In this document: positions 21,542-62,426 of the stretch, piece after piece
How the letters are laid out: each line of letters begins with the position of its first letter
Numbering within the stretch: position 1 is the stretch's first letter
Assembly (NCBI GenBank): GCA_041671485.1
Contig: JBAZBL010000007.1
Coordinates: 1 to 63,588, forward strand
Reading direction: 5' to 3'
Source: Minisyncoccota bacterium
GTDB lineage: Bacteria > Patescibacteriota > Minisyncoccia > Phycocordibacterales > PALSA-1337
DNA length: 63,588 bases
Notes under the pieces: model-generated
Told to the model about the DNA's origin: nothing
The model's database searches: none
The model's input: the letters and a program-made list of their open reading frames with translations, nothing else
Program-made: the position numbers and the translations under genes

Positions 21542-23614
21542 CTATAATTTGTGCCTAGCTCTATATTTTAATAATGAATCTGGGTTATTATAACTAGCAA
21601 TATCCTCATAACAATATCCATCCCTTTCTATTCCATTTGATGCTTTAATATTGATTGGGGTTAGTTTTAATTCATCAATAATCCGTTTTATGACTGTCCT
21701 ACTTTGCTTCACCTTTTCACCTATCGCGCGTTCTGATCCATAATGTTTACCCGACTCATCAATATAGAAATCTTTCCATTCTCCGGTCTTGAACACAAAT
21801 TTTCCTTCAAAAAAATCTCTGAGCAGATTCTGGAATCTGAAGTCATTTTTTAAAGCCTCTATGCAAAATACTTCGACCCTAGAATTATTTAGATTACGAA
21901 CAATTAATCTTTCAGTAACATCTTCCAAGTATTTGCTTATAGCACTTTTAGGAAGATTAAACTTCTTACACAAAACTTTTTCAGTTGTCCAGTGATTACT
22001 GTTTTTATCTACATAATATCCAGCCCACTCTCCGCTCTTTTCAACTTGAGGAAAAGAAAGATAGCCTTTCACTTCTTCTAGCATTAATAAATTCTCATAA
22101 CAATAACAATTGTCAACTCTTCCTGTTAAATCTCTAAGGCTTCTGCACACGACTTTATTTCTCGTAATAAACTTATTCAATGTATTCTCACGAAAGTTAA
22201 ATTTGGTTACAAGATTGTGTACATTAGCCCAGTGTTTCCCATTCTCGTCTATCCAAAATCCTTTCCATTCACCTTCAGAGATGACTTTAGGTAATTCTAT
22301 AAATTGTTTTACTATTTCTAAAGAAGCTAACTCTTCATAGCAATAAGCTTTAGTCCGTCTGTTTGATAAATCTCTCATCTCTATCCCCGATATATTTTTT
22401 TCAGATATACCTCTTTGAATCACAGACACGTGTACTCCTAATTTTGCTGATAGAACAGACAACGGTGCCAAATGTTTTCCATTAATTTCTGTATAAAAAC
22501 CTCTCCACTCTCCAGAGAGTTCTGATTTAGGTATTTTTTCGATAAAATCTTTTATGTAGTCCATTTGTAATACTTCCTCATAACAGTATGCCTCACATCT
22601 TCTATTCATTCCAGCTAGAATCGTCTTGGTTGAAAAGTCTTTAATTACCTTAAATAAACCTTGTTTGGCAATACCAATTTTTCTAGCAATAGCTGTAAAC
22701 GAAGCCCAGTGTTTCTCATTCTCGTCGGTCCAAAATCCTTTCCATGGATCAAATTCCGATGAGGAACTTTTTGGAAAGTCAAAATCTTGTTCCATTGTGT
22801 TCTGTTCTCTTTCTTCGACAGTCCTAGTACTTTCTACACTACTAGATAAGAGTTCACTTATATTTTCACGCCAATACTTTGTTTGAATAATTCTTCGACC
22901 AATATCTGGGAATTCTTTTATAAGATCGCTTCTTTCTTGCTTGGTCATTATATCCAATCTATCAAGAGCCAGACCCTGTTCTTCTAATTTACGAACATCA
23001 AAAATATAGCTGGCATTTCCTTCTTCCTCGCACACATATACCACCCTATTTAAAGGTTTTATTTCCACTCTAAAGTATGGCGTTTGTCTCATCATTTCTT
23101 CTGTTACTTGCCCTTGAATAAGATTGACTTGATCTCTAGAAATGCTGAAATCAGTTTCAAGAATATATAGAAGGGTAGTTAATCTTGGTATTAGTTTCTT
23201 TTTTTCAAAAGTCTCTTCTCCACTTGTTGGGACAGATTCTAAAGTGTCTGGAGGTGTAATAACATTATTTGTAAATTTTAATCTTTCATTAATAAACACC
23301 TCTATAGATTTAATCTGATCTATCTTTCTCTGTGCCCTATCTAGTAACTCACCTATATTTGGTAGACTATAATATATATAAGCCTCGTCTTCAAACTCCC
23401 TTATGGTTTTGTTGCTTTCAATCTTTTTCTTGTATCTTTGAATCACATCTTCTGTAAAAACAACAAGCTGATTTAAGGCGTCATTTGCAAATGTGTTTAT
23501 ATTTTCAACAGTTAAAGGAGCTTCGAGAATTGATGATAGACGAGCTTGAAGCTCTTTATTTTCCTCATATCTCAATCTGTTCTCGGTAGAAAAAGAAGGA
23601 TTTTCTGATGACAT
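21542..23614 (-). CDS. Hypothetical 690-aa protein with five tandem ~70-aa modules (W-x-G-F/Y-W/Y ... G-K-H-W ... C-Y-E)
   Basis: Internal repeats are visible in the translation, starting at WKGFWTDENEKHW, WRGFYTEINGKHL, WKGFWIDENGKHW, WAGYYVDKNSNHW and WKDFYIDESGKHY. Confidence 0.6.
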   Translation of the reverse strand: MSSENPSFSTENRLRYEENKELQARLSSILEAPLTVENINTFANDALNQLVVFTEDVIQRYKKKIESNKTIREFEDEAYIYYSLPNIGELLDRAQRKIDQIKSIEVFINERLKFTNNVITPPDTLESVPTSGEETFEKKKLIPRLTTLLYILETDFSISRDQVNLIQGQVTEEMMRQTPYFRVEIKPLNRVVYVCEEEGNASYIFDVRKLEEQGLALDRLDIMTKQERSDLIKEFPDIGRRIIQTKYWRENISELLSSSVESTRTVEEREQNTMEQDFDFPKSSSSEFDPWKGFWTDENEKHWASFTAIARKIGIAKQGLFKVIKDFSTKTILAGMNRRCEAYCYEEVLQMDYIKDFIEKIPKSELSGEWRGFYTEINGKHLAPLSVLSAKLGVHVSVIQRGISEKNISGIEMRDLSNRRTKAYCYEELASLEIVKQFIELPKVISEGEWKGFWIDENGKHWANVHNLVTKFNFRENTLNKFITRNKVVCRSLRDLTGRVDNCYCYENLLMLEEVKGYLSFPQVEKSGEWAGYYVDKNSNHWTTEKVLCKKFNLPKSAISKYLEDVTERLIVRNLNNSRVEVFCIEALKNDFRFQNLLRDFFEGKFVFKTGEWKDFYIDESGKHYGSERAIGEKVKQSRTVIKRIIDELKLTPINIKASNGIERDGYCYEDIASYNNPDSLLKYRARHKL

Positions 23615-23682
23615 ATTCTCATATTAACAGAATTTTCCAAAAGATTAAACCCTACTGCTTCTGTGAAGAGTACCCAATAAAG

Positions 23683-24125: not shown

Positions 24126-24384
24126 ACGAAAATACCCTTCTAAAAGAGTATTTTCGAGTTCTCGCCACCGACTATAATGTCGAACGAATCAGCTTGGAGA
24201 ATACTCCAATGACCGCGAGATTCGTAACTGCTAGACATAGTAGCAAGATTAGGATATTTGTCAATAATAATGACCAAGTTCACATACATATGACTAACCT
24301 CACAGTTTGTGCTTGACTTCCTATAATTCTTTTGTTATCTTTATTATGTTATTCACAAATCGTCACACTTCGTGGCAATTTGCA

Positions 24385-24428
24385 CCAAAAGAGCGTGTCC
24401 TAGGTCTAGGGCCCGCTCTTTTGGTTTT
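24385..24428 (+). terminator. Orphan rho-independent terminator in a 527-nt non-coding gap
   Basis: ccaaaagagcg-N18-cgctcttttgg followed by TTTT. Confidence 0.65.
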
Positions 24429-24615
24429 CTACCAGATTTTATAGAGGTATTTCTTATCAATCACTTTTCGGGATAATACCCATTTTTTACCTTAGTTTAA
24501 AAAAGGATATTTAGACAAAAGGAAAACGCCACACAAGTTGGCGTTTTCTAATGACTCTAATAGTATAGACGACCTAGATTAAAAGTCAATAGCAAATTGT
24601 TGATAACATATACAG

Positions 24616-37356: not shown

Positions 37357-39711
37357 TCATTTTGCTACTTTCACTGCTTCTTCAAATGCAATAGATAATA
37401 GTCGAGAAGCGCCGTCAGATCCCATTGTTATGCCATAGAGAACTCCAGCACGAGACATTGTTTCGCGATTGTGAGTTATGAGTATGAGTTGGGATCTTCT
37501 AGATAGATCTTCTATCATATCTCCATATTTCTTTGAATTTGCTTCATCGAGTGCTGCATCAGTTTCGTCCAGAATGATAAAAGGTGGAGGATTGACTTGG
37601 GATATTGCAAACAGTAATGCTATTGAAGTCAATGCCCTTTCGCCACCAGAGAGCATCATTAGTCCTTTGACCTTTTTCCTAGGCAGACTGACATTTACTT
37701 CTAGTCCCAAGTAACCTTCTTCTTGTATTTCATTTTCTTCATCAATACTATTTGCAATCCTCTCTTCAGACAATATTTCATCCAATTCCCCTATATCACT
37801 CTTTTTTCGTCTTTTTATTTCTCTTACTGCTTCCAATTCGGCCTTACCACCACCAAACATGAGTACAAAGAATTTTTGGAATTCAGCATTTATTTTCAAA
37901 ATACCACTTTTGAATTCAAAATCAATACGCAGATCGAGATCTGTTATCATTTTGAGCAATTCTAACTTTGCTTTCGCCAGATCCTCCAATTCTTTCCCTA
38001 GAAATACATCTCTTTCTTCTGTCTCTCTATATTCCTTCATGACTTCATTGCCACCATAGCCACCAGCATCCTCGAGACGTATCTTTAATTTCTCGATTTG
38101 TCTTCTACGACTTTCTTGCGCATCTCGATCTATTCGGTCGTTCCCGTCGCAGGCGGCGACAAGTGTCGAACGAGGCGAAGCCGAATGTGAGACACTTCGT
38201 CGCGCCGAGGAGGGAACGACCGACAATTGGTCGGCTGACGCATAATCTAACACTTCCCTACCAATAATAATTCCTGCCTCTCCCAAATCCCTCTTCATAG
38301 ATTCTTCATCATGAATCACTTTGTTTAACTCATTTGTAAGATCAGAGACTATATTTCGTAGTTCATTTTGTTTTGCAATTATTCTAAAAACATCTTTTTC
38401 TGCATCACGATTTGTATCTTTCTCTTTCTCTAGAGATTCTTTTAGACCCACATATTTGTCATTTATCTTCTTCTCTTCTTCTATTATAGATCTCAATTTC
38501 TTTTCCAATTCACCTTTATCTCTCTCCAATTTGCCAACTTCTTCTTTGAGATCTACATTGAAGAGTGAATCTATTACTGATTTGTGTTTACCGATAAATT
38601 CTTTGAGAGTCTTTATGATCTCAGAGAAGAGTTTCCTGGCATCATCAAAAATACTAAAGCTTTCGATATTTCGAACAACTTCTTCTAGGTCTTTCAAATA
38701 TACAGTTTTCGATTCTTCATTTTTTATTTTATAATTCTCTTTTTCAATTGCCCTTTTATTTGCATTTATCTCTCCTTCTATCCTTCCAACATCCCTCATT
38801 ATCTCTTCCTTTTTACTCCTTTCCTCTCTCAACCTTTTTTCGAGTTCTATCAATTCATGGCTTTTATTGTCTTTATTCTTAGAATTGGTAAGCACATCCT
38901 TTGCTTTTTCGAGTTCCTTTTCGAGAAAAGCAAGATCTTTCCTTGGCTCTGACAGTAGAGTGGTCAATCTCTCTTTCTCTGTTTTTACATAATAGTCTTC
39001 AATAGAAAAATATTCTTTGTATAGAGTAGTTAGCTCTTTGCGCATCTCTTCTGCTCTCTCTACTTTCTCAACTTGTTTTTTCAAGAATTTCAAATGTGGT
39101 GCAATCTCTCTTCGCAATGATTCTACTTGATTCATATTTTCTTCTGTCTTTTCGAGCTTCCTTAGGCTTTCAATCTTTTTCCATTGATATACCTTAAGAC
39201 CGAGTGCATCTTCTATGATCTCTCTCCTTTCTCTCGTAGAAGCAGAAAGCACCCTATCTGCCTCTCCTTGAGATATGATATGGTGTCCTGTTGCTCCGAC
39301 ATGAGCATTTGCCAATAATTCAGCGATATCTCTCAAACGGACTTGACTGCCATTTAGTAGATATTCATTGGAATTATCTCTATGTACTATCCTCTCGACC
39401 ATTACTTCATCAAAATCAATATCTTTGAATATTCTCCTAGAATTGTCGAAAGCAAGTTTTACATTTGCTCTATTTGCCCTCCCTGTACCCGATGAACTAT
39501 CTCCCCCTCCATTCCAGATCATATCTTCTCCCCTCTTGCCTCGAAGAGACTTGATAGACTGCTCTCCTAGTACAAACTGGAAAGCTTCTGCAATATTGGA
39601 CTTGCCCGAACCATTTGGTCCAACAATGCCAGTTATCGCTGAAGTAAAAGACAGCGACGATTTTTTGGCAAATGATTTGAAACCAGAAAGCTCAAGGGAT
39701 TTGAGATACAT
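37357..39711 (-). CDS. smc: SMC-like chromosome partition ATPase (short, 784 aa)
   Basis: N-terminal Walker A GPNGSGKSN, long coiled coils, C-terminal signature LSGGERALTSIALLFA and Walker B ILDETDAALD. Confidence 0.85.
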   Translation of the reverse strand: MYLKSLELSGFKSFAKKSSLSFTSAITGIVGPNGSGKSNIAEAFQFVLGEQSIKSLRGKRGEDMIWNGGGDSSSGTGRANRANVKLAFDNSRRIFKDIDFDEVMVERIVHRDNSNEYLLNGSQVRLRDIAELLANAHVGATGHHIISQGEADRVLSASTRERREIIEDALGLKVYQWKKIESLRKLEKTEENMNQVESLRREIAPHLKFLKKQVEKVERAEEMRKELTTLYKEYFSIEDYYVKTEKERLTTLLSEPRKDLAFLEKELEKAKDVLTNSKNKDNKSHELIELEKRLREERSKKEEIMRDVGRIEGEINANKRAIEKENYKIKNEESKTVYLKDLEEVVRNIESFSIFDDARKLFSEIIKTLKEFIGKHKSVIDSLFNVDLKEEVGKLERDKGELEKKLRSIIEEEKKINDKYVGLKESLEKEKDTNRDAEKDVFRIIAKQNELRNIVSDLTNELNKVIHDEESMKRDLGEAGIIIGREVLDYASADQLSVVPSSARRSVSHSASPRSTLVAACDGNDRIDRDAQESRRRQIEKLKIRLEDAGGYGGNEVMKEYRETEERDVFLGKELEDLAKAKLELLKMITDLDLRIDFEFKSGILKINAEFQKFFVLMFGGGKAELEAVREIKRRKKSDIGELDEILSEERIANSIDEENEIQEEGYLGLEVNVSLPRKKVKGLMMLSGGERALTSIALLFAISQVNPPPFIILDETDAALDEANSKKYGDMIEDLSRRSQLILITHNRETMSRAGVLYGITMGSDGASRLLSIAFEEAVKVAK
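38137..38221 (+). repeat. GC-rich palindromic element, copy 1, embedded in frame in smc
   Basis: ggtcgttccc...gggaacgacc outer stem, gacaagtgtc/gacacttcgtc inner stem, loop gaacgaggcgaagccgaatgtga. About 85 percent identical to copy 2. Confidence 0.8.
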
Positions 39712-39733
39712 GGCTATATTCTAGCATTTTCTC

Positions 39734-40066: not shown

Positions 40067-40765
40067 TCACCACCCCTTCACCTCGAGTGCCTTCTCTGCT
40101 GCTTTTTGTTCTGCCTCTTGTTTGGAAGGACCAGAACCAGTAGCGACTTGAACATCGCCTAGAAATACTCCCAAAGTGAATTGTTTATCATGGTCAGGAC
40201 CAATTTCCTTCAGAGTTCTATAAGATGGAGTAATACCCACTTTGTCTTGTGCAACTTCCTGGAAACGACTCTTTGCATCTATCCAAGTTTTGTTTTTGAC
40301 TATTTCTTCTATATCTATCGTGTTTAGCAAATGATTTGAGATAAAGTTGGCCGCAGCATTGTATCCACGATCTAGATATATAGCGCCTATTATTGCCTCT
40401 ACTGCATTGGCGAGAATAACGGAGCGGGCACGACCACCATCTTTGGCTTCACCTTTTGAAAGCAAAATGTAGTCATTCAAGTTTATAGATTGAGCAACTT
40501 TTGTGAGACTAACGGTATTCACGAGAGCAGAGCGGAATGCTGTTAGTTCACCTTCAGCTTTCTTTGTGTATTTCCTGAATAGGAAACTTGTCACTACCAA
40601 TTCCAATACTGCATCGCCTAGGAATTCTAGTCTTTCATTGTGTTCCATTCCAGAAACACGATTTTCATTCAAATAAGAGCGATGTGTACAAGCATTTTGC
40701 AAAAGCGAAATATCGTCAAATTCGACTCCTATTTTATCTGCAAATTCTTTGAAATCTGTTTTCAT
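40067..40765 (-). CDS. rnc: Ribonuclease III
   Basis: Signature ERLEFLGDAVL and a C-terminal dsRBD. Confidence 0.93.
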   Translation of the reverse strand: MKTDFKEFADKIGVEFDDISLLQNACTHRSYLNENRVSGMEHNERLEFLGDAVLELVVTSFLFRKYTKKAEGELTAFRSALVNTVSLTKVAQSINLNDYILLSKGEAKDGGRARSVILANAVEAIIGAIYLDRGYNAAANFISNHLLNTIDIEEIVKNKTWIDAKSRFQEVAQDKVGITPSYRTLKEIGPDHDKQFTLGVFLGDVQVATGSGPSKQEAEQKAAEKALEVKGW

Positions 40766-43661: not shown

Positions 43662-44408
43662 TTATTTCTTAATTACTTTTTCAAAACTCGAATTGTAATC
43701 GACCAACTTTTCCCAATTGATTTTTCCATCATCACAAAAATTTTGTGAAAACTCTAGTGTAAGTTTATTTATTATTTGAGCATACTTCTCCATAAATTCC
43801 TCATTTCTCTCCTTTGCCTTGTAACCAATCGGCTCAACTATGTCAATATATAATTTTTTATTTCCAGAAATAAGTTCCCAGAATCTTTGTCCGCACAATT
43901 TCAAATAACCATTTTTATCAGGTTTATTATCTCTACCGAAACAACACCCATTAATAGCAACAACTTTTTTGCTAGTTTTTTTATGCAATAATTTTTTTGC
44001 ATTCTCAAAATTGATTTTAAGCTGACGGATTTGGCTTGAATTACCCCAGTTCCAGCCTGCTTTGATTTCAATAATATATACTATCCCATCTTTTTCAAAT
44101 TCCAGATCTATCCCTGTCAACTCTGATTTTTTAGCACCATATACTTTATCACAAACAAAAATCGCTAAACCCTCAATAAAGTCGCCAAAAAGTGTTTCCT
44201 CCTGAGATTGTAAAAAAGCATCTAAAAAGCCTTTGATCAAATCCTGGGCGGTTAATACATTCTTAGCCCTAAAAAGATATGGGTTTTTCTGTTTAAGAAT
44301 CTTGTACAAATCGACCTTATTTTGTACATAATCTAATCTCCTTTGGTGGAAGATTGAAATATGTTCCTCTACATATCCATGGACTTCTTGCAGGTTAAAT
44401 TTTTTCAT
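43662..44408 (-). CDS. Type II restriction endonuclease candidate (PD-(D/E)XK)
   Basis: Motif GIDLEF...YIIEIKAG (D...E-x-K). Start overlaps the methylase stop by 4 nt. Confidence 0.6.
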   Translation of the reverse strand: MKKFNLQEVHGYVEEHISIFHQRRLDYVQNKVDLYKILKQKNPYLFRAKNVLTAQDLIKGFLDAFLQSQEETLFGDFIEGLAIFVCDKVYGAKKSELTGIDLEFEKDGIVYIIEIKAGWNWGNSSQIRQLKINFENAKKLLHKKTSKKVVAINGCCFGRDNKPDKNGYLKLCGQRFWELISGNKKLYIDIVEPIGYKAKERNEEFMEKYAQIINKLTLEFSQNFCDDGKINWEKLVDYNSSFEKVIKK

Positions 44409-45253
44409 ACAGTTAATTTGTTATGAACGAATAAGGACGACTCTTTTTGTGCAATCTTCTTTTTAGCCATTTCAACGTATTCTGACATTATATCAATACC
44501 AATAGAATTACGTCCCATCTTTTGTGCAACTTCTGATGTGGTGCCAGAACCCAAAAATGGATCCAGAACAAAATCGTTTTCTCGAGTAAATAATTTGATA
44601 AACCATTCTGGTAACTCTTCCGGAAAAGCAGCACTGTGATTTTTGTTATTACAAACAGTTGCGAATTGCAAGACATTGCTAGGAAAAACCATGCTTCGTT
44701 TCAACCAATTGGAAATATTTTTACCAAACCCACTACCATTCTTAGAATTATCTCGTATTTTATCTGTTTCACTAAGATTTTTTAAACGTCCGTAAGCCCA
44801 ATCACCAACTGGTATCATTACTGATTCTTGGTACATATTAAAATCGCGTGCTTTATTAAATTGCAACACTCGTTCCCACGAATCACGAAAACGATTTGGC
44901 CATTTACCAGGATAACAATTTTTCTTATGCCAGATAAATTCTTCAGTCCATAACCAACCCTGCTTACGCAATGCTAAAATAAGTTCAAGTACATAGGTAC
45001 TACGCTCACCATTTTCTGCTTTTTCCTTGATATTTAAAATAAACGTACCAGTCGGCTTTAATACACGTAATAATTGTTCGCTAATAGGTAAAAACCACTC
45101 GACATATTTTTCAGTGCTAATACCGCCATAGGTATTTTTTCTTCTATCTGCATAAGGTGGTGATGTAACAATCAAGTCAATAAAATTATCATCAACTGTT
45201 TTAAGAATTTTCCGCGAATCACCAAGTAATATTTTTGTTGTTACATTAAGCAT
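44405..45253 (-). CDS. DNA methyltransferase, beta-class N4/N6 (SPPY)
   Basis: Catalytic motif TSPPYADRR is N-terminal and the SAM motif DPFLGSGTT is C-terminal. Confidence 0.85.
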   Translation of the reverse strand: MLNVTTKILLGDSRKILKTVDDNFIDLIVTSPPYADRRKNTYGGISTEKYVEWFLPISEQLLRVLKPTGTFILNIKEKAENGERSTYVLELILALRKQGWLWTEEFIWHKKNCYPGKWPNRFRDSWERVLQFNKARDFNMYQESVMIPVGDWAYGRLKNLSETDKIRDNSKNGSGFGKNISNWLKRSMVFPSNVLQFATVCNNKNHSAAFPEELPEWFIKLFTRENDFVLDPFLGSGTTSEVAQKMGRNSIGIDIMSEYVEMAKKKIAQKESSLFVHNKLTV

Positions 45254-45387
45254 AATTGTATTATAACATTCTTGTATCTATGAAATACTCAACCAATTAA
45301 GGAATAAACTTACCTTTGTATTGAACCATTTTTCGCCATGCTTTGTAAAGATAGAGTTCGTTAACAATCTAAAAGCGGAAAAACAAT

Positions 45388-50074: not shown

Positions 50075-52108
50075 CTATATCTCTTCTATGGTGGGTTTTA
50101 CTACATTGATTGTTATTGTATTACTATCAATAGTAGTAATCTGTGCAAAGATTTGGGAGATTGAACTAATTACACTTGCGATCAATGAAGATTTGGCTTT
50201 AGTGATTGATGGATCGCATTTCAATTTTACAATGTATTTTCCTTTAATTAAATCTCTAAATACATAAGATCCTTCATCATCAACCTCAACATCTAACCAA
50301 TCCTGAGATTTTAAATATTGTATCGGATACTCATTATAAAATCCCGAACAAAAACGACTCTTTGTATCATACAGCACAACAACATCCACCCCTTCTCTCA
50401 CCGTCTTTGTTTGAGTAGATTCATTATTAATTGGTTTGGCCATATCACTAAACCAAAGCAGTGGCTTTGTAGAGCCTCCTGTAGATGGCCCTGTGACTAC
50501 TATAGGACCACAAGAAAGGTTAACTTGTTTAACTGGATTAGAACTATCAGTTACTGACAATAATAAATCTAAATAAGAACCAGCAGATAAATTAAATGGT
50601 GAATAGTGATATGGTGCAGTTCCACCTTGAAGATTTGTCACTATTGGATTAACAATTACCTCGGTTCCTGTTATGATAGTTGCAGTGCGGGGAGAAATTG
50701 TACACGTCCCCGTTATTCCTCCTCCACCATTATTATCATCAGTCACTGTAACTGAAACACTATCTGATGCTCGTCCAGATGGTCCTTTACAATCGATAAC
50801 AAAAGTCATATTTTCGATTACAGTTCCAGAAATAGTATCAATCAAAGGAACTGATCCTACATAACCAGACCAATCATCTCCTTTCTCTCCACCGACAGTA
50901 CTAAGATCACATGAAGTCACATTTTCAGAAGTCCATGAGACTTCCGATGAATATGATGTTTGACCATCAGGACTTACTTTTGGATCAGCTTCGATATTGA
51001 CTGTAGGAGAATAGCAAGACGGATCTTTCGTATTATCTATAGACCTTGGACTTGATGTAGCTGTATTATTGGCTTTGACTGAATATGTCCATAAGGAATT
51101 AATTGCGGCAGTAGTATCGGTATATGTAGTACCTATAATATCCTTCACTGTTAATGATGGATTTGATTCAGAGCTTATAAAACGAGTAACCTTATAACTT
51201 GTTGCTCCTGGAATTGCGCTCCAATTCAATACAACAGATGTACAAGTTTTGGTTATGGTTAAATTATATGACGGTGGAGGAACAGGAGCAGTTACCGTCA
51301 AATTAAAAGTGGTGGAGTGAACAACTGGTGGTGCTGTAACATTCACCGTCGCGCTAGTTGGTAAGCTCGCGCCACCAGCTCCAGTACAAGTTGCAGTAAA
51401 TGTAGTATTGGTAGTCAAAGCACCAGAAGAAATATTAGTACCAGAAGTTCCTGTTTGCCATGCTGAGCCAGCTTTTGTTACAGAGCAGGAAGTAGCGTTA
51501 GTTGAAGTCCAAGTAATATTTGAGGTAGAACCAGATGTGACACTGGTCGAACTTGCGGAAATAGTAACAGTTGGTAATGGAGTCACGACAACACTAACAT
51601 TCTCCATCTTAAAATTCGTTTTTGCCCCATTTGTGACAGAAATCTCAATGTAACCACCGGTTGTTAATGGAGTAAAGACAACAGAGTTGGTACCACTCCG
51701 AGCTAGATGATCCAATATTCTAACTGCACCAGAAGCGAGATAAATATTACCCCGGCCACTAGTATCAGAGACAAAACGAATATTCGGAGCAGTGCCTGCT
51801 GGATTTGTTGGATTTAGCGTATATGTATAGGTAAGAGTGTATGGTTTACCGGCGGTCAAAGATATCCAGTTTGATCTTGCGCCACCAACATTTGCTCTGG
51901 ATTCAATTGCCGAACTAATATTATTGCCGCTTGTTGTCAATGTTTTGGTACCATTCGGAGCATCATAAGGGTAAGAACTACCTTGATTGAAAGAAGTAAT
52001 GAGATTTGATGCTTGACCATTTACAGGAATAGCAAAAGTAATCAATCCTACAAATACAAATATTACTGTAGCGAGAGAAATGAATAGATTTTTTCTATTT
52101 TTGAACAT
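50075..52108 (-). CDS. Large secreted surface protein with Ser/Thr-rich Ig-like repeats
   Basis: Start trimmed to MFKNRKNLFISLATVIFVFVG (signal/anchor). The upstream 41 codons overlap the preceding gene. Confidence 0.6.
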   Translation of the reverse strand: MFKNRKNLFISLATVIFVFVGLITFAIPVNGQASNLITSFNQGSSYPYDAPNGTKTLTTSGNNISSAIESRANVGGARSNWISLTAGKPYTLTYTYTLNPTNPAGTAPNIRFVSDTSGRGNIYLASGAVRILDHLARSGTNSVVFTPLTTGGYIEISVTNGAKTNFKMENVSVVVTPLPTVTISASSTSVTSGSTSNITWTSTNATSCSVTKAGSAWQTGTSGTNISSGALTTNTTFTATCTGAGGASLPTSATVNVTAPPVVHSTTFNLTVTAPVPPPSYNLTITKTCTSVVLNWSAIPGATSYKVTRFISSESNPSLTVKDIIGTTYTDTTAAINSLWTYSVKANNTATSSPRSIDNTKDPSCYSPTVNIEADPKVSPDGQTSYSSEVSWTSENVTSCDLSTVGGEKGDDWSGYVGSVPLIDTISGTVIENMTFVIDCKGPSGRASDSVSVTVTDDNNGGGGITGTCTISPRTATIITGTEVIVNPIVTNLQGGTAPYHYSPFNLSAGSYLDLLLSVTDSSNPVKQVNLSCGPIVVTGPSTGGSTKPLLWFSDMAKPINNESTQTKTVREGVDVVVLYDTKSRFCSGFYNEYPIQYLKSQDWLDVEVDDEGSYVFRDLIKGKYIVKLKCDPSITKAKSSLIASVISSISQIFAQITTIDSNTITINVVKPTIEEI

Positions 52109-52110
52109 AA

Positions 52111-53184
52111 TTAAATCGCATAATTCCATGAATAAATAACTGATGGATCTACAACAGCACCATTTACTGTAACAGAATATGTAGCAGAACCGATACCCGA
52201 ACCATACGGGTCTCCAGGTACTGCGGGACAAATAATAAGATTATTATAAGTAATGTTGCCAAAACCGCCCTTGGTCAGAATAGTATTAGCTGGGACGGTA
52301 AAATTGTCTGGAGCCGAATCAAGATTACAAGTTGGACAACTCTTGGTAAAACTCGTTCTGGAAAAAGAAGCCTCGCTTGAATACCGATTATTAATGCTCA
52401 TCTTGGCGTAAAATGAAGTTGTTACCCCATTACAATATCCAAGCGCGGTTGCATATTGATCTGGGAAACCGGGATTTACCACTTCGGATGTACCCACAAT
52501 AGTTACTGGATATGTGCCGGGAGGAGTTAAAGCAGTCGTTAAAATATTTATTGTTGTCGCGCAAGTCATTATTCCGCTTCCCGAAGGCGTGCAAGAGGTG
52601 GGCGAGATAGAGGCCGTGCTCTCTGGTGGCAATTCAGAAACATTAAAAGTAACAAGACCTGTGGGAACCGAGAGAATTTTAGTAACAGTAATTGTGTTTG
52701 TAATTGATTGACCTTGACTGACACTTCTAGTACCTCCATTTAAAAGCGAAAAATCAAATGCACCGGTAGATGACGGGGGAGCAATGTTACATTTAAAATT
52801 TGATGATGGAGTGCTTGGTGATGGATAATACGACCATCCATTCGCATTACAATAATTACCACCAAGAGAATTGCTGATTGCCGACGGCACCGTTAAGTTT
52901 TTACAGAATGGCTCGTCGGTTGAAATTTCGCACTTGTAAGGTGCGGTTGTCTTCAAAACAGAAAACGAAGAATCAATTGAGCATTGAAAATAACGAGTAT
53001 CTGGATTAGCTATTGTATCTGTTAGTGATTTGCAGTAATAAATCGGCTGACTCTGAGCGGAAACAACATAAGAGGTACCTATGTAACTCGTTGTAAAGAC
53101 AACGAAAATTAAAGCGAGAAGCATAACTGGATTTATTTCTTTTATATTTTTCATATTATATAAATAACTAACTTTTATATTCAC
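52111..53184 (-). CDS. Secreted Cys-containing hypothetical protein
   Basis: 357-aa ORF. The likely start is MKNIKEINPVMLLALIFVV at 53154. It stops 2 nt before the next gene's start. Confidence 0.55.
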   Translation of the reverse strand: MNIKVSYLYNMKNIKEINPVMLLALIFVVFTTSYIGTSYVVSAQSQPIYYCKSLTDTIANPDTRYFQCSIDSSFSVLKTTAPYKCEISTDEPFCKNLTVPSAISNSLGGNYCNANGWSYYPSPSTPSSNFKCNIAPPSSTGAFDFSLLNGGTRSVSQGQSITNTITVTKILSVPTGLVTFNVSELPPESTASISPTSCTPSGSGIMTCATTINILTTALTPPGTYPVTIVGTSEVVNPGFPDQYATALGYCNGVTTSFYAKMSINNRYSSEASFSRTSFTKSCPTCNLDSAPDNFTVPANTILTKGGFGNITYNNLIICPAVPGDPYGSGIGSATYSVTVNGAVVDPSVIYSWNYAI

Positions 53185-55710: not shown

Positions 55711-56511
55711 TTAGAGTTTCAATCTTGCATTTCCTTTTGTATTTGCTTTCTTCAATTCCCCTTGCACATCTCTTGCAGCTTTCCTGTATGCACAAAAATC
55801 ACAATCATCTCCTGCTTTGGGTGGATTTTCAGACATTAGACATGTTTTTATCTTGGGTAATATAGGATCTATCCAAGAAGGATCACCTTTGCAAGGAAGC
55901 AATACGACATCAAATTCTAGCTTTTTATCAAATGCTTCTCTATCTTTATTACCATTTACATATACAAAATATCCTGTAGGAGATACCTTGAAGCCATTCA
56001 TGCGAAATAACCATTGATAAACTTCCATTTGTCTTTTGTATTGTTCGCCTAGTCTGCCTTCTAGCGTTATCTCATCTCTTTTTGAAGTTGCTTTATAGTC
56101 AACTATTATCAATTCTTCTTTCTTATTGACCCAGACATCGTCTACTCCACCCCTTACAGAGAGATTTGTTTCTCTATGTAAATATTCTATTCCCCTCCTC
56201 ATCGAATCTCTCCATTCTTCCATTCTCGGATCGTCAAATGGCAAAGCATCTATTTTATAAGATTCCATGAATGGGTGGCGGGTCTTTGCAACTCTATGTA
56301 TATCAAATTCTCTTTTTAGGAGTTCATCTACTGCTATATTTAGAGTGAGAGGAAATGAAGGTGGTCGCCCTACACCGAGTCTTTGATCGAGATAGAAACA
56401 GAGTGGACAGTCGATGAATAGATCTATCTTACTTCTACTTATGCGGTGTGGTTGCGTAGAATTGGGATCAAAGATCCCCCGTGTTTTCCTAGGTTTATAG
56501 TATTCGCTCAT
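55711..56511 (-). CDS. PD-(D/E)XK nuclease, Cas4/RecB-like, with four Cys
   Basis: IVDYKATSK motif with N-terminal CPLC and C-terminal CDFC, suggesting an Fe-S or Zn site. Confidence 0.65.
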   Translation of the reverse strand: MSEYYKPRKTRGIFDPNSTQPHRISRSKIDLFIDCPLCFYLDQRLGVGRPPSFPLTLNIAVDELLKREFDIHRVAKTRHPFMESYKIDALPFDDPRMEEWRDSMRRGIEYLHRETNLSVRGGVDDVWVNKKEELIIVDYKATSKRDEITLEGRLGEQYKRQMEVYQWLFRMNGFKVSPTGYFVYVNGNKDREAFDKKLEFDVVLLPCKGDPSWIDPILPKIKTCLMSENPPKAGDDCDFCAYRKAARDVQGELKKANTKGNARLKL

Positions 56512-56549
56512 ATTTGAATACTAACATGAAATCACCAATAATACTGTTA

Positions 56550-59209: not shown

Positions 59210-60229
59210 TCAAAACTTGTAAAGCTCTTTGGCTTTCGACACAACTACTCTCTTGGCTTCTTCTAGAGACGTATTGTTGAGTAGAGCACCTGATGCTGCT
59301 TTATGACCTCCACCACCAAACTCGGTAGCGATTCTTGACACATCGAAACGATCTGAATCCCTAGTGCGAAAACTTATCTTGATCTTGTCTTTTTCTATCT
59401 CAGTCATAAGCACACTTACATTCCAACCAATAACAGATTTCAATAGATTGCCTATTTCACTACCACTGACTGCATTCAAAGAAATATTTTTTTCTTTTAC
59501 ATCTTCTTGTGATACAGATGCTATAACAACATTCTCGTCTAAAAAAGTCTCAATAGAATTGAGCGCTGCTCTTTCGAAATATACAACATCTTTCTCATTG
59601 CTATTCTCTAATATAAATATTGCCTGTGGGAAATCTGGAGCAATCTTGGTCAATACACCAATAGCTTCAAACATCCTATGATCTGTCCCTTCATACTTGA
59701 AGCCACCTGTATCAGAATACATTCCCGTAAAAAGATTGATTGAAATATCGTGAGTCAATTCAACATTCCACTCATGAAATAGTTGAAACAGAGTAAAAGC
59801 CAACGCTTGAGAATTGAGGTCTATAAGATTTATATCTGCATAATTTGTATTTGTTTGGTGATGATCAATATTTATCGTCTTTATCTCCAATGGAAACTTC
59901 ATATCTCCCCTACGAGATATCATACTTGGAGCAGCACTATCCAGAATTAAAAACAGATCAAATTCTTTTATATCTATTTCAAAAAAATTCTTTTGCATTA
60001 TTGTCGAAGCGCCCAGAAAATGCATATAGGCTTGTGGAATATCTGAATCACCACTGATAGCAGTCACCTTCTTGCCCATCTTTTCCAATGCATATTTCAT
60101 AGCCAAGACCGAGCATACAGAATCTGTGTCAGGCGAAGGATGACAATGTAGTAATATAGAATTGGCTTTTTGTATCTCTCTCAGAATAATAGGCGCTTTT
60201 TCTTTTATTATTTGTGATATTTCATTCAT
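59210..60229 (-). CDS. DHH-family phosphoesterase (NrnA-like)
   Basis: DHH motifs (HPSPDTDS, DHH in NIDHHQ) and DHHA1 GGGH. Confidence 0.85.
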   Translation of the reverse strand: MNEISQIIKEKAPIILREIQKANSILLHCHPSPDTDSVCSVLAMKYALEKMGKKVTAISGDSDIPQAYMHFLGASTIMQKNFFEIDIKEFDLFLILDSAAPSMISRRGDMKFPLEIKTINIDHHQTNTNYADINLIDLNSQALAFTLFQLFHEWNVELTHDISINLFTGMYSDTGGFKYEGTDHRMFEAIGVLTKIAPDFPQAIFILENSNEKDVVYFERAALNSIETFLDENVVIASVSQEDVKEKNISLNAVSGSEIGNLLKSVIGWNVSVLMTEIEKDKIKISFRTRDSDRFDVSRIATEFGGGGHKAASGALLNNTSLEEAKRVVVSKAKELYKF

Positions 60230-60254
60230 ATAATTATCCTAGCATATTTGATAT

Positions 60255-60289
60255 AAGAAAAAACGCGCCAACTCGAGGTTGACGCGTTT
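60255..60289 (-). terminator. Rho-independent terminator of the large non-coding transcript
   Basis: Minus strand aaacgcgtcaac-ctcga-gttggcgcgttt followed by a T run. Its G-U wobble is valid only on the minus strand. Confidence 0.8.
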
Positions 60290-60922
60290 GGCAGAGTCTT
60301 TCTCCCTGCCTACTGTCCCTTTTTTCCGATCTTTATTTTGATGGGTGCCGGGCGAGCTTATGCAGGCCACGGTCTCGCCGTCGATATCTCCTTTCCGGTG
60401 GATTACCACCGGTGGTAGACCGACGGACAGAAGCGTGGTCGCAGTGCAAAGGAATCTCGTCGTCGAGACGAGCTCCTCTTAGCGCCGCGCCAGGCACCCG
60501 TTTCTTAACAGGATCCAATTAACGCTGATACAAAGTATGCAAAACTCTGTATCATCAAACCTACTGACCTATTGACCACCGAGGTCCAAATAAGGTCTGT
60601 AAGGTCTGATTGCGTTTTACGGCCTTTCAAGGAGTGAACTTCTCGAGTAAACCCCAGCGTAAGTTGCATCTTGACGCTTAGGAAGACCAAGAGAAGTTTC
60701 GAAACTCACTCCTTAACTCAAGACGTGGAATTCGCTGTCTGCGAACTTCCACGCCAAGAGCAAGCTCTAAGGCGTAATTCTTGCCTTTAAGGTCGCTAGC
60801 GTTAAGATGGGATCCAAAAAATCATCTAAACACGCGCTCCACTCCGACTTCTAGAAATAGAAAGCAGAGTGGAACACGCATTTATTTGATTCGTAAGATC
60901 AGATATCAATGTACTTAACTGC
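60290..60922 (-). ncRNA. Unclassified ~630-nt GC-rich structured non-coding RNA candidate
   Basis: Bounded by a consensus promoter and a terminator. There is no credible ORF, and many local and long-range helices are present. No match to tmRNA, SRP or RNase P signatures that I can recognise. Confidence 0.55.
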
Positions 60923-60926
60923 AGAT

Positions 60927-60954
60927 AGTATAGCATACCCATTGTATTTGTCAA
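60927..60954 (-). promoter_or_regulatory. Strong sigma70-type promoter driving the non-coding transcript
   Basis: Minus strand TTGACA-N16-TGcTATACT. Confidence 0.7.
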
Positions 60955-61085
60955 GCAATATTTTCTCAAATATTCAAAATATGGCCTTATTGAGCCATAT
61001 TTATTTTATTTTGACAGGCCATTTTCTTGCCTTTTTGGAGGATTATTATATTTCCATCAATAGAAATGTTCCTGAATGAAAAATG

Positions 61086-61094
61086 TGCTATATT
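61086..61094 (+). promoter_or_regulatory. Extended -10 (TGcTATATT) 6 nt upstream of ATG 61101; leaderless aspS
   Basis: aTGcTATATTtatgctATGcgc. The -10 box lies inside the longer ORF-track start at 61083. Confidence 0.4.
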
Positions 61095-61100
61095 TATGCT

Positions 61101-62426
61101 ATGCGCACATATATTCATGAACTAAAAGAAAATGTTGGAAAAGAAGTATCTATTTCTGGCTGGATAGACGTAAGGCGTGATCAGGGAAAAATGATTTTCT
61201 TTGAATTTAGAGATGTATCTGGCAAAGTTCAAGGTGTAGTATTGCCAAACAATAAAAAGACTTTGGAATTGTGCAAAGATATTCGTCCAGAATGGGTAGT
61301 CAATGTTATTGGTTTAGTGAATAAGAGACCTGATAAAAATATTCAGAAAGATAAATTAAACGGTGATATTGAGATAGAAGTAAAAGATATTGTAATATTA
61401 GCAGAAGCAAAAGAATTGCCTTTTGAATTGAATGCTGATGTCAATCTAGATACATACTTCGATACTCTTCCCTTCACTCTACGTAGACCCAAAGCCAAAG
61501 CAATATTCAGAGTACAAGCGTGTATCACAAGAGCATTCCGAGAATTCTATGATAGTAAAGGATTTGTAGAATTCCAAGCACCAAAACTGATTGGCGATGA
61601 TGCAGAGGGCGGAGCAAATTCTTTCGATGTAACTTATTTCAAACACATAGCACACTTGGCACAAAGTCCGCAACTATACAAACAAATAATGGTTGGAGTA
61701 TTTGAAAGAGTCTTTACACTGGGCAATGTATATAGAGCAGAGAAACATTCTACGACAAGACACCTCAATGAATATACTTCTATGGACATAGAAATGGGTT
61801 TTATCAAAGATCATGAAGATATAATGAATATTGAAAATGAAATGTTAGCCTATGTTTCAGATATCCTAAAGAAAGAATGTAAAGTTGAATTTGAATTATT
61901 AAAATCAACTATTCCTGAAGTATCAAATAAAATACCACGTATGACTTTGCGTGATGCACAAAAACTCATAACAAAAGAGACAGGCAAAGATTGCACGCAA
62001 GAACCCGACCTAGAACCAGAGCATGAACGTTGGCTTTGTGAATATTCTGCAAAAAACCTTGATTCAGAGTTTATATTTATAACTCATTTCCCTACAGCAA
62101 AAAGACCCTTCTATACTTATCGTGATGAAAAAGATCCTACTTATACCAAAGGATTTGATCTTTTATTTCGTGGAGTAGAGATAACGACTGGTGCACAACG
62201 AATTCACAAATACGATGATCTAGTATCATCACTCAAAGAAAAGGGCCTAAATCCAGAGAAATTCTCTTTTTATTTGCAGGCCTTCAAATACGGCATGCCT
62301 CCACATGGAGGATTTGGCCTTGGACTTGAACGCCTAACAGCCAAACTTCTAGGTATTGAAAACGTCAAAGAAGCAACTCTATTCCCTAGGGATATGAATC
62401 GCATCGACACTTTACTTTCGGAGTGA
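61101..62426 (+). CDS. aspS: Aspartyl-tRNA synthetase, archaeal/eukaryotic type
   Basis: Class IIb motifs QSPQLYKQ, FRAEKHSTTRHLNEYTSMDIEM, GGFGLGLERL. About 440 aa. Confidence 0.85.
   Translation: MRTYIHELKENVGKEVSISGWIDVRRDQGKMIFFEFRDVSGKVQGVVLPNNKKTLELCKDIRPEWVVNVIGLVNKRPDKNIQKDKLNGDIEIEVKDIVILAEAKELPFELNADVNLDTYFDTLPFTLRRPKAKAIFRVQACITRAFREFYDSKGFVEFQAPKLIGDDAEGGANSFDVTYFKHIAHLAQSPQLYKQIMVGVFERVFTLGNVYRAEKHSTTRHLNEYTSMDIEMGFIKDHEDIMNIENEMLAYVSDILKKECKVEFELLKSTIPEVSNKIPRMTLRDAQKLITKETGKDCTQEPDLEPEHERWLCEYSAKNLDSEFIFITHFPTAKRPFYTYRDEKDPTYTKGFDLLFRGVEITTGAQRIHKYDDLVSSLKEKGLNPEKFSFYLQAFKYGMPPHGGFGLGLERLTAKLLGIENVKEATLFPRDMNRIDTLLSE

Follow-up and report, generated by a model that had tools for sequence, protein, structure and literature searches.

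A candidate gene for a large structured non-coding RNA with a replaceable arm in a Patescibacteria chromosome

The DNA analysed here (the window) is a 63,588-nucleotide (nt) contig, JBAZBL010000007.1, of the Minisyncoccota bacterium assembly GCA_041671485.1. Between AspRS on the plus strand (open reading frame, ORF, from 61083) and a DHH/DHHA1 (NrnA-like) gene on the minus strand (59210-60229) lies a gap of 853 nt, the second-longest inter-ORF gap in the window, which lacks credible ORFs and holds, between these divergent flanks, a predicted RNA unit. A sequence-only reading of this DNA had proposed an autonomous, non-coding, highly structured unit of unknown class, and every test run agrees with that description. 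One distinct orthologue was identified, at locus L083 of a related Patescibacteria species (93% and 84% amino acid identity in AspRS and DHH, respectively), where the same AspRS/gap/DHH arrangement is found with a gap of 897 nt. The elements of the locus are the following.

60927 to 60954, minus strand: promoter, with -35 hexamer TTGACA (60954-60949), 16-nt spacer and extended -10 TGcTATACT (60935-60927); 11 of 12 hexamer matches plus the TG extension
60255 to 60920, minus strand: inferred transcript of ~665 nt, GC content 0.48, starting at A60920 and ending at about 60255
60895 to 60903, minus strand: 5' strand of a long-range helix, pairing with the 3' tail at 60333-60325 (helix 18-26/588-596 in RNA numbering)
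60819 to 60892, minus strand: long 5' hairpin of 6 + 20 + 6 base pairs (bp), with single-nt bulges, a UUUC loop and several G-U pairs (helices 29-34/97-102, 37-56/75-94 and 58-63/68-73)
60511 to 60815, minus strand: conserved multi-helix core with five hairpins (a-c, e and f), from the fold and the L083 comparison
60722 to 60755, minus strand: hairpin b, 14 bp, one G bulge, loop AGACA; L083 differs in the loop only
60627 to 60716, minus strand: hairpin c, 11 + 7 bp, with an 8-nt internal loop GUUUCGAA, a distal stem and tip loop AUGCAA (60669-60664), from the fold
60554 to 60610, minus strand: hairpin e, three stacked helices of the GACCU/AGGUC type, from the fold
60527 to 60553, minus strand: hairpin f, 10 bp, loop UUUGCAU, from the fold
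60343 to 60499, minus strand: variable arm, on a conserved 12-bp closing helix GGGUGCCUGGCG/CGCCCGGCACCC (60499-60488/60354-60343)
60363 to 60467, minus strand: replaced arm core, 105 nt in the window versus 131 nt in L083
60325 to 60333, minus strand: 3' strand of the long-range helix, partner of 60895-60903
60290 to 60310, minus strand: 3' hairpin GGCAGGG-loop-CUCUGCC; in L083 the stem is kept and one pair longer, and the loop differs
60255 to 60289, minus strand: intrinsic terminator, 12-bp stem (60289-60261) including one U-G pair, followed by the U-run UUUUUUCUU, from the terminator scan
60227 to 60244, minus strand: boundary feature outside the RNA, the extended -10 and start of the DHH gene itself, TGCTAGGAT-N6-ATG, conserved in L083

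Both transcription signals named in the sequence-only reading, a near-consensus minus-strand promoter (TTGACA-16-TG-c-TATACT) and a strong intrinsic terminator, are present as described. The stricter promoter pattern TTGACA-N13-15-TGNTANNNT matches two sites in the window, compared with a mean of 0.25 in shuffled sequences. L083 has the same two hexamers and the same TG, with differences in the spacer and in the 6 nt that follow the -10. The terminator wobble is specific to the minus strand, as had been pointed out: the U-G pair formed there corresponds to a C-A mismatch on the plus strand. In L083, the terminator loop is changed to UUCG and one pair is added, with the structure kept. The start at A60920 was not measured but placed at the seventh nucleotide after the -10, by the spacing at the leaderless genes of the window (see below); an unbroken 56-nt stretch of identity with L083 opens exactly at 60920, and two of the 6 nt between the -10 and this position differ. 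The distance from promoter to terminator gives an RNA of ~665 nt, longer than the ~630 nt first estimated. The GC content of the transcript is above that of the window (0.373), in agreement with the sequence-only reading, but the value of one-half given there fits the 3' arm only. Judging from these signals, the unit is an independent, strongly promoted (sigma-70-type) and self-terminated gene. A hairpin with T-runs on both strands is located at 60977-61002, 25 nt upstream of the -35 of the RNA; it was scored as a plus-strand terminator, and its stem is weaker in L083.

The RNA unit and DHH are on the same strand, with 30 nt between the end of the former and the start codon of the latter, and in relatives DHH is often found close behind same-strand upstream genes. 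This arrangement could point to a very long 5' leader or attenuator that acts in cis on the DHH (NrnA-like)-PPIase operon, with the terminator serving as a regulated stop, an alternative already raised from the sequence, which we consider quite improbable. The DHH gene is equipped with an extended -10 and a start of its own downstream of the terminator, the -10 lying at precisely the -15 spacing seen in about nine other genes of the window; both are kept in L083, so that the RNA would be an autonomous gene and not a leader. In relatives with a bare DHH-AspRS spacer, DHH directly follows the TGCTATAGT motif, and the DHH gene of L114, which has no such RNA upstream, begins in the same way. A riboswitch or attenuator would call for a conserved competitor sequence, but no conserved anti-terminator was found (the sole candidate partner, GCGUCAA at the tip of hairpin c, is lost in L083; dependence on read-through was not measured), none of the Rfam riboswitch or leader models matches, and the size and near-invariance of the 430-nt core go beyond what an attenuator needs.

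The arrangement TGNTANNNT-N6-ATG occurs 10 times in the window, compared with 4.5 +/- 2.1 times in shuffled sequences (1 of 100 shuffles reaches 10), and 9 of the 10 occurrences are at gene starts (examples are 23612-23629, 39709-39726, 45251-45268, 56509-56526, 60227-60244 and 61086-61103), which suggests, at the level of sequence motifs, that leaderless mRNAs transcribed from extended -10 promoters are widespread in this genome. The true start of AspRS is likely ATG 61101, not 61083, given the TGCTATATT-N6-ATG arrangement there; the database protein has 441 amino acids.

Homologues in related genomes, which the sequence-only reading had proposed to look for, are represented by L083, with conservation well above the neutral level and with structure-compatible substitutions. 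From the inferred start to the arm-closing helix, 410 of the 430 aligned positions (95%) are identical, versus 229 of 343 (67%) four-fold degenerate sites of AspRS, DHH and PPIase (binomial P ~4e-48) and 87% of the intergenic DNA upstream of the start (P ~6e-9). Per 100-nt window, identity in the core is 89-98%, compared with 75-93% in the flanking genes. Outside the arm, 13 of the 363 paired positions carry substitutions, versus 16 of the 161 unpaired ones, so substitutions are about threefold rarer where bases are paired (Fisher P = 0.006). When the 184 predicted pairs were compared with L083, 170 were unchanged, three were altered on one side but still pairing, one was compensatory and eight were counted as broken; three of these eight are artefacts of aligning the remodelled hairpin c tip, where the pairs are re-formed in the fold of L083 itself. 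L083 retains the promoter hexamers, the stem of the terminator and every core helix. This two-sequence comparison suggests, short of proof, a constrained RNA.

The minimum free energy (MFE) of the RNA strand is -294.7 kcal/mol (z = -12.8 versus shuffles). The plus strand folds to -253.7 kcal/mol (z = -10.2), so the minus strand is better by 41 kcal/mol. Among the 184 core pairs, 20 are G-U pairs, which fixes the RNA strand as the minus strand. The six helices listed in the sequence-only reading were all found, both in the sequence and in the MFE fold. The 5' long hairpin differs from its L083 counterpart by a single substitution, C to U at a bulge; at ~32 bp, it may be long enough for an RNase III substrate, and an RNase III gene is present in the window at 40067-40765. 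In the long-range helix that joins the 5' end to the 3' tail, one U-G pair is replaced with U-A in L083, and pairing is kept.

The core is closed by the helices GGAUCC/GGAUCC (60815-60810/60516-60511) and UUAACGCU/AGCGUUAA (60805-60798/60526-60519). Within it, the distal stem of hairpin c is remodelled in L083 from AGCGUCAAG to AGUGUUU, which still pairs, with the tip loop unchanged. Hairpin e shows a compensatory change from G-C to A-U at 60586/60574, and a change from A-U to G-U at 60610/60554. Six nucleotides in the loop of hairpin f (UUGCAU, 60542-60537) could base-pair with the whole AUGCAA tip loop of hairpin c, and both sequences are unchanged in L083. At least one such 6-nt loop-loop match arises in 35% of loop shuffles, so the complementarity is not significant by itself and was rejected as proof of a tertiary contact; a putative contact between hairpins c and f is a weak lead. 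Several unpaired palindromes are also present in the RNA.

The variable arm behaves differently. Its base is shared by the two species (GCGCUA..GAGCUCGU on one side and CAUAAGCUCG on the other), and a U-C mismatch in the arm-closing helix of the window corresponds to a G-C pair in L083. The arm has a GC content of 0.61-0.63, and the stretch 60302-60501, at 0.59, has the highest 200-nt value of the window. The arm cores of the window and L083 show similarity at chance level, in direct as well as reverse-complement orientation (z ~0 to -0.9): their local alignment score is 14, whereas 33% neutral divergence without indels would give ~52 +/- 18. Both cores nonetheless form rods that are better than shuffles (z = -3.4 and -4.2). 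Because the cores cannot be aligned and yet each folds beyond chance, structure appears to be selected here, and sequence not. To judge by these alignments, either the arm was replaced or its turnover outpaced that of neutral sites. It was found to be identical in two other sequencing runs of the species (L001 and L002), that is, in three runs in all, and therefore does not appear to switch rapidly. The short L001 and L002 contigs contain the identical 3' part of the RNA. Both assemblies break inside the RNA, at position 1 of each contig, and L002 breaks exactly at the 5' edge of the arm-closing helix; such breaks could come from variants that occur together, with a common core but different arms, or simply from low coverage. 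Three simple origins of the arm were considered and rejected: inversion between the species, given that the reverse-complement alignment is at chance level; copying from other DNA, as no other copy of either arm core was found among the window and the fetched loci; and a small encoded protein, the frames not being conserved in L083.

A search of the whole window against Rfam 15 at the gathering threshold identified only four tRNAs, all elsewhere; the families covered include OLE, ROOL, GOLLD, HEARO, raiA, transfer-messenger RNA (tmRNA), RNase P, SRP, 6S, group I and II introns, T-box and ydaO, none of which matched. At E<=10, the RNA region gave one chance hit of 23 bits (threshold 60), on the terminator, and the L083 copy gave seven chance hits, likewise centred on the terminator, all of 25 bits or less and far below threshold. 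ARAGORN found no tmRNA in the window or in L083, consistent with the lack of tmRNA hallmarks noted before. Two 61-codon ORFs (60333-60518 and 60505-60690) exist as previously described, but only the first is Arg-rich, and neither frame is kept in L083. A concatenated six-frame translation, also meant to catch spurious ORF calls on homologous RNAs, retrieved nothing at E<=10 from 5.8 billion proteins, which speaks against a degraded protein gene, one of the outcomes that would have undone the earlier proposal. An origin as a pseudogene of the Gmad2, GAF or SHOCT genes found at this position in relatives was also rejected (tblastn noise only, best E = 0.005, on the wrong strand). It is extremely improbable, in our estimate, that there is no functional RNA here, only a decayed coding sequence or structured DNA that is not transcribed. 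The narrow phylogenetic distribution and the prediction of the RNA from sequence alone would be compatible with that possibility, but conservation is far above neutral, the consensus promoter and the terminator are kept in both species, protein similarity is absent in every frame, and the G-U strand asymmetry makes sense only for an RNA. Found together at this locus are the generic marks of an RNA gene: its own promoter and terminator, folding, above-neutral conservation, pair-aware substitutions and no coding signal.

A different possibility is that the transcript serves as a precursor, from which RNase III, for example, would release several small RNAs derived from its hairpins, and does not function as one large RNA. 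The seven or eight long, nearly perfect hairpins (10-32 bp), the RNase III gene in the window and a second window unit with a strong promoter, a ~100-nt RNA and a common 5' motif, UUACGAAUC, are in line with such processing. We nevertheless regard it as very unlikely, inasmuch as the conserved long-range helices (5' end/3' tail, GGAUCC/GGAUCC and UUAACGCU/AGCGUUAA) tie the hairpins into one architecture, the joining regions are conserved as well as the hairpins, and the hairpins are mutually dissimilar in sequence. The second unit, at 24127-24264 on the minus strand, has the only other full-consensus promoter of the window (TTGACAAATA...TGCTACTAT) and ends in a terminator hairpin. Its folding z is -4.3, and it has no Rfam hit. 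Like the large RNA, it starts with AGUUA, and the UUACGAAUC near the 5' ends of both is present in the window in these two copies only of the 9-mer. By these sequence features, it is a second small-RNA candidate.

The relatives of DHH and AspRS are labelled Patescibacteria or Paceibacterota. A synteny walk based on 10 exact-protein look-ups of these relatives identified the RNA only in L083, and nhmmer searches with a two-sequence profile detected no further homologue in 143 fetched loci. An nhmmer search was also negative in 80 loci of GTDB representative genomes reached through DHH relatives, the closest of which (<=46% DHH identity) have no large gap upstream of DHH. In lineages with DHH identity of 64-70%, the position of the RNA is occupied by Gmad2, GAF or SHOCT genes, or by GroES/EL, and in those with AspRS identity of 80-82%, by HisRS, Gmad2 with small ORFs, or a bare spacer of 186-255 nt, the RNA being absent. 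The interval between AspRS and DHH is a hotspot in related Patescibacteria (L085 3196-3906, L088 139-1237, L089 2160-2991, L142 2734-4004 and L114 1050-1304), where Gmad2, GAF and SHOCT genes occur in varying combinations, or where a GC-rich spacer of 186-255 nt stands alone. BLAST of phage and plasmid collections gave no match, five exact or degenerate k-mer scans of IMG/VR gave zero or random hits only, and in a metagenome collection a wobble-tolerant pattern of the hairpin b-c junction had 0 hits and one of the 3' flank of the arm had 26, all unrelated. From this distribution, the gene looks recently acquired at a variable hotspot and is known from two species.

Such a distribution brings up the possibility that the RNA is the cargo or remnant of a mobile or defence element at the hotspot, with a partner protein elsewhere or lost and the swapped arm as its specificity module; a TIGR stem-loop array, a retron or DRT non-coding RNA (ncRNA), or a phage-derived ROOL/GOLLD-like RNA would be examples. 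The RNA is lineage-restricted, at a spot that in relatives holds Gmad2, GAF or SHOCT genes or nothing; its GC content is well above that of the genome; the boundaries between invariant flanks and unalignable core are sharp, as left by recombinational cassette exchange; and TIGR systems have been reported in Patescibacteria (PMC12045711). We still judge this origin rather unlikely. Pfam annotation of 50 ORFs across the 63.6-kb window detected no domain of a reverse transcriptase, Nop (Tas) protein, Cas protein, integrase or transposase. The region contains no direct-repeat family or periodic unit beyond chance two-copy matches, and flanking inverted repeats are limited to 13-nt AT-rich matches at 85-92%, with no terminal repeats beyond such chance matches. 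No second copy of the RNA was found in the window, and an element resembling a miniature inverted-repeat transposable element was rejected on the grounds that the RNA is single-copy in the window and in all loci fetched. The hairpin loops are small, not dual 8-12-nt spacers flanked by box C/D motifs; phage, plasmid and IMG/VR matches are lacking; and the arm is identical across three runs of the species.

TIGR arrays are guide-RNA arrays of Tas/Nop proteins reported in Patescibacteria and phages, one type of array being a tandem series of stem-loops whose palindromic stems vary (PMC12045711). The RNA described here resembles them in its successive hairpins with differing stems, in the phylum, and in one segment that is wholly different between close relatives. 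However, its loops are 4-9 nt long, in contrast to two 8-12-nt spacers with box C/D motifs, and all hairpins but one are near-identical between the species, where TIGR spacers should vary. A TIGR array was rejected, given that there is no Nop/Tas gene among the window ORFs, no repeated unit and no spacer-bearing loops. Retron and DRT ncRNAs share with this RNA a structured organisation in which a conserved part is combined with a hypervariable hairpin bounded by pairing segments, but the RNA here is several-fold larger and has no retron-type Rfam match; this candidate was likewise rejected, no RVT domain being encoded in the window. Intervening sequences of 23S rRNA form an extended helix on a conserved helix, free in sequence but kept in stability, and differ wholesale between close relatives. 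The arm is reminiscent of such an rRNA intervening sequence or expansion segment in being a stable rod, grafted on a conserved helix and replaced between sister species, whereas the host RNA is not an rRNA (no Rfam rRNA hit).

To our knowledge, very few bacterial ncRNAs apart from rRNAs exceed ~500 nt in length (OLE, ROOL, GOLLD and a small number of others), and each of them is structurally unusual. OLE is found in Bacillota, beside oapA-type genes. The present RNA is similar to OLE in its ~600-nt size class, stand-alone gene, high degree of structure, near-invariant stretches and a function not evident from sequence, but differs in the lack of an Rfam model match, the Patescibacteria host, and AspRS, DHH/NrnA-like and cyclophilin neighbours in place of oapA-type genes; its helices are longer and more regular, and it is known from 2 species, compared with hundreds for OLE. 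ROOL and GOLLD occur in phage or prophage context, frequently near tRNA genes. They too are large bacterial RNAs (~580-800 nt) built of many helices, often include variable regions and have no known function; the complementary terminal loops AUGCAA/UUGCAU (expected by chance in 35% of cases) and the unpaired palindromes add to the likeness, and oligomerisation would be a lead from sequence only. In contrast to ROOL and GOLLD, the RNA has no Rfam match, no prophage context, no match to phage or viral contigs and no adjoining tRNAs: the tRNAs of the window lie at 2.7-14.9 kb, the nearest being more than 45 kb away. The other genes of the window are ordinary chromosomal ones (LepA, MurJ, RNR, GroEL, RNase J, enolase, SMC, RNase III and NusB). 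By analogy, size and style would place the RNA with the large orphan RNAs OLE, ROOL and GOLLD (PMC12286853), although every test of membership that was run came out negative. OLE is a protein-bound, dimer-forming ribonucleoprotein (RNP; PMC12286853, PMC12265935), and ROOL and GOLLD self-assemble via loop-loop and other RNA-RNA contacts (PMC12286853).

We therefore describe a credible new family of large structured ncRNA with a narrow known distribution. On balance, we think it somewhat probable that the locus is an independent gene for a ~665-nt structured ncRNA, trans-acting and scaffold-like, with a replaceable arm, in a Patescibacteria (Paceibacteria-like) chromosome. The molecule would consist of the ~32-bp 5' hairpin, the multi-helix core with its long-range closing helices, the GC-rich arm on a 12-bp helix and a short 3' hairpin, with the core kept nearly invariant in nucleotides and the arm kept as a stable rod of free sequence. 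It would act in trans as a stable structural RNA, either as a scaffold for proteins or through self-assembly, in the manner of OLE, ROOL and GOLLD; the arm would form a lineage-specific module at the periphery, much as an rRNA expansion or intervening sequence does, and the 5' hairpin would possibly be trimmed by RNase III. More doubtful, but worth considering, is an undescribed RNA class of the Candidate Phyla Radiation, in which an almost invariant multi-helix core, as a self-assembling or protein-binding scaffold, would be combined with a GC-rich plug-in arm that is swapped as a whole between sister species and serves lineage-specific recognition or assembly, addressing a host, a phage or a partner molecule.

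Several points weigh against a scaffold-like RNA gene. The gene is known from DNA sequence alone, and the scaffold or RNP function is a guess by analogy. Many helices are long and near-perfect, more like those of processed precursors or antisense-type RNAs than of 'ornate' catalytic or scaffold RNAs. With two distinct sequences only (plus identical strain copies), covariation analysis is powerless, and one compensatory pair proves little; of the eight broken pairs, two, at the outer end of one core helix, do not form in L083. The absence of the RNA from the next relatives (AspRS identity of 80-82%) implies that it is evolutionarily young or horizontally acquired, and recent transfer, not constraint, could explain part of the high identity. 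On the other hand, the genomes of Patescibacteria are tiny and leave little room for spare DNA; an RNA gene of 665 nt that is strongly promoted and held by tight purifying selection therefore probably does important work for the cell. The combination of an invariant core with a fully replaced arm amounts to a natural experiment on modular RNA architecture, with the caveat that it comprises two species so far and has no link to a pathway.

A few further features of the window were recorded. A type II restriction-modification pair, an EcoO109I-like endonuclease and an adjacent N6/N4 DNA methylase, is encoded at 43662-45253. At 50075-53184, two ORFs of 718 and 357 amino acids with overlapping ends are Thr/Ser/Gly-rich, have N-terminal hydrophobic segments and lack Pfam hits; they probably encode surface proteins. 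Finally, the 527-nt gap with the second small-RNA candidate also contains, at 24380-24600 on the minus strand, two more terminator-like hairpins, one of them after a TTGACT-17-TATACT promoter-like site, which may belong to further short transcripts.

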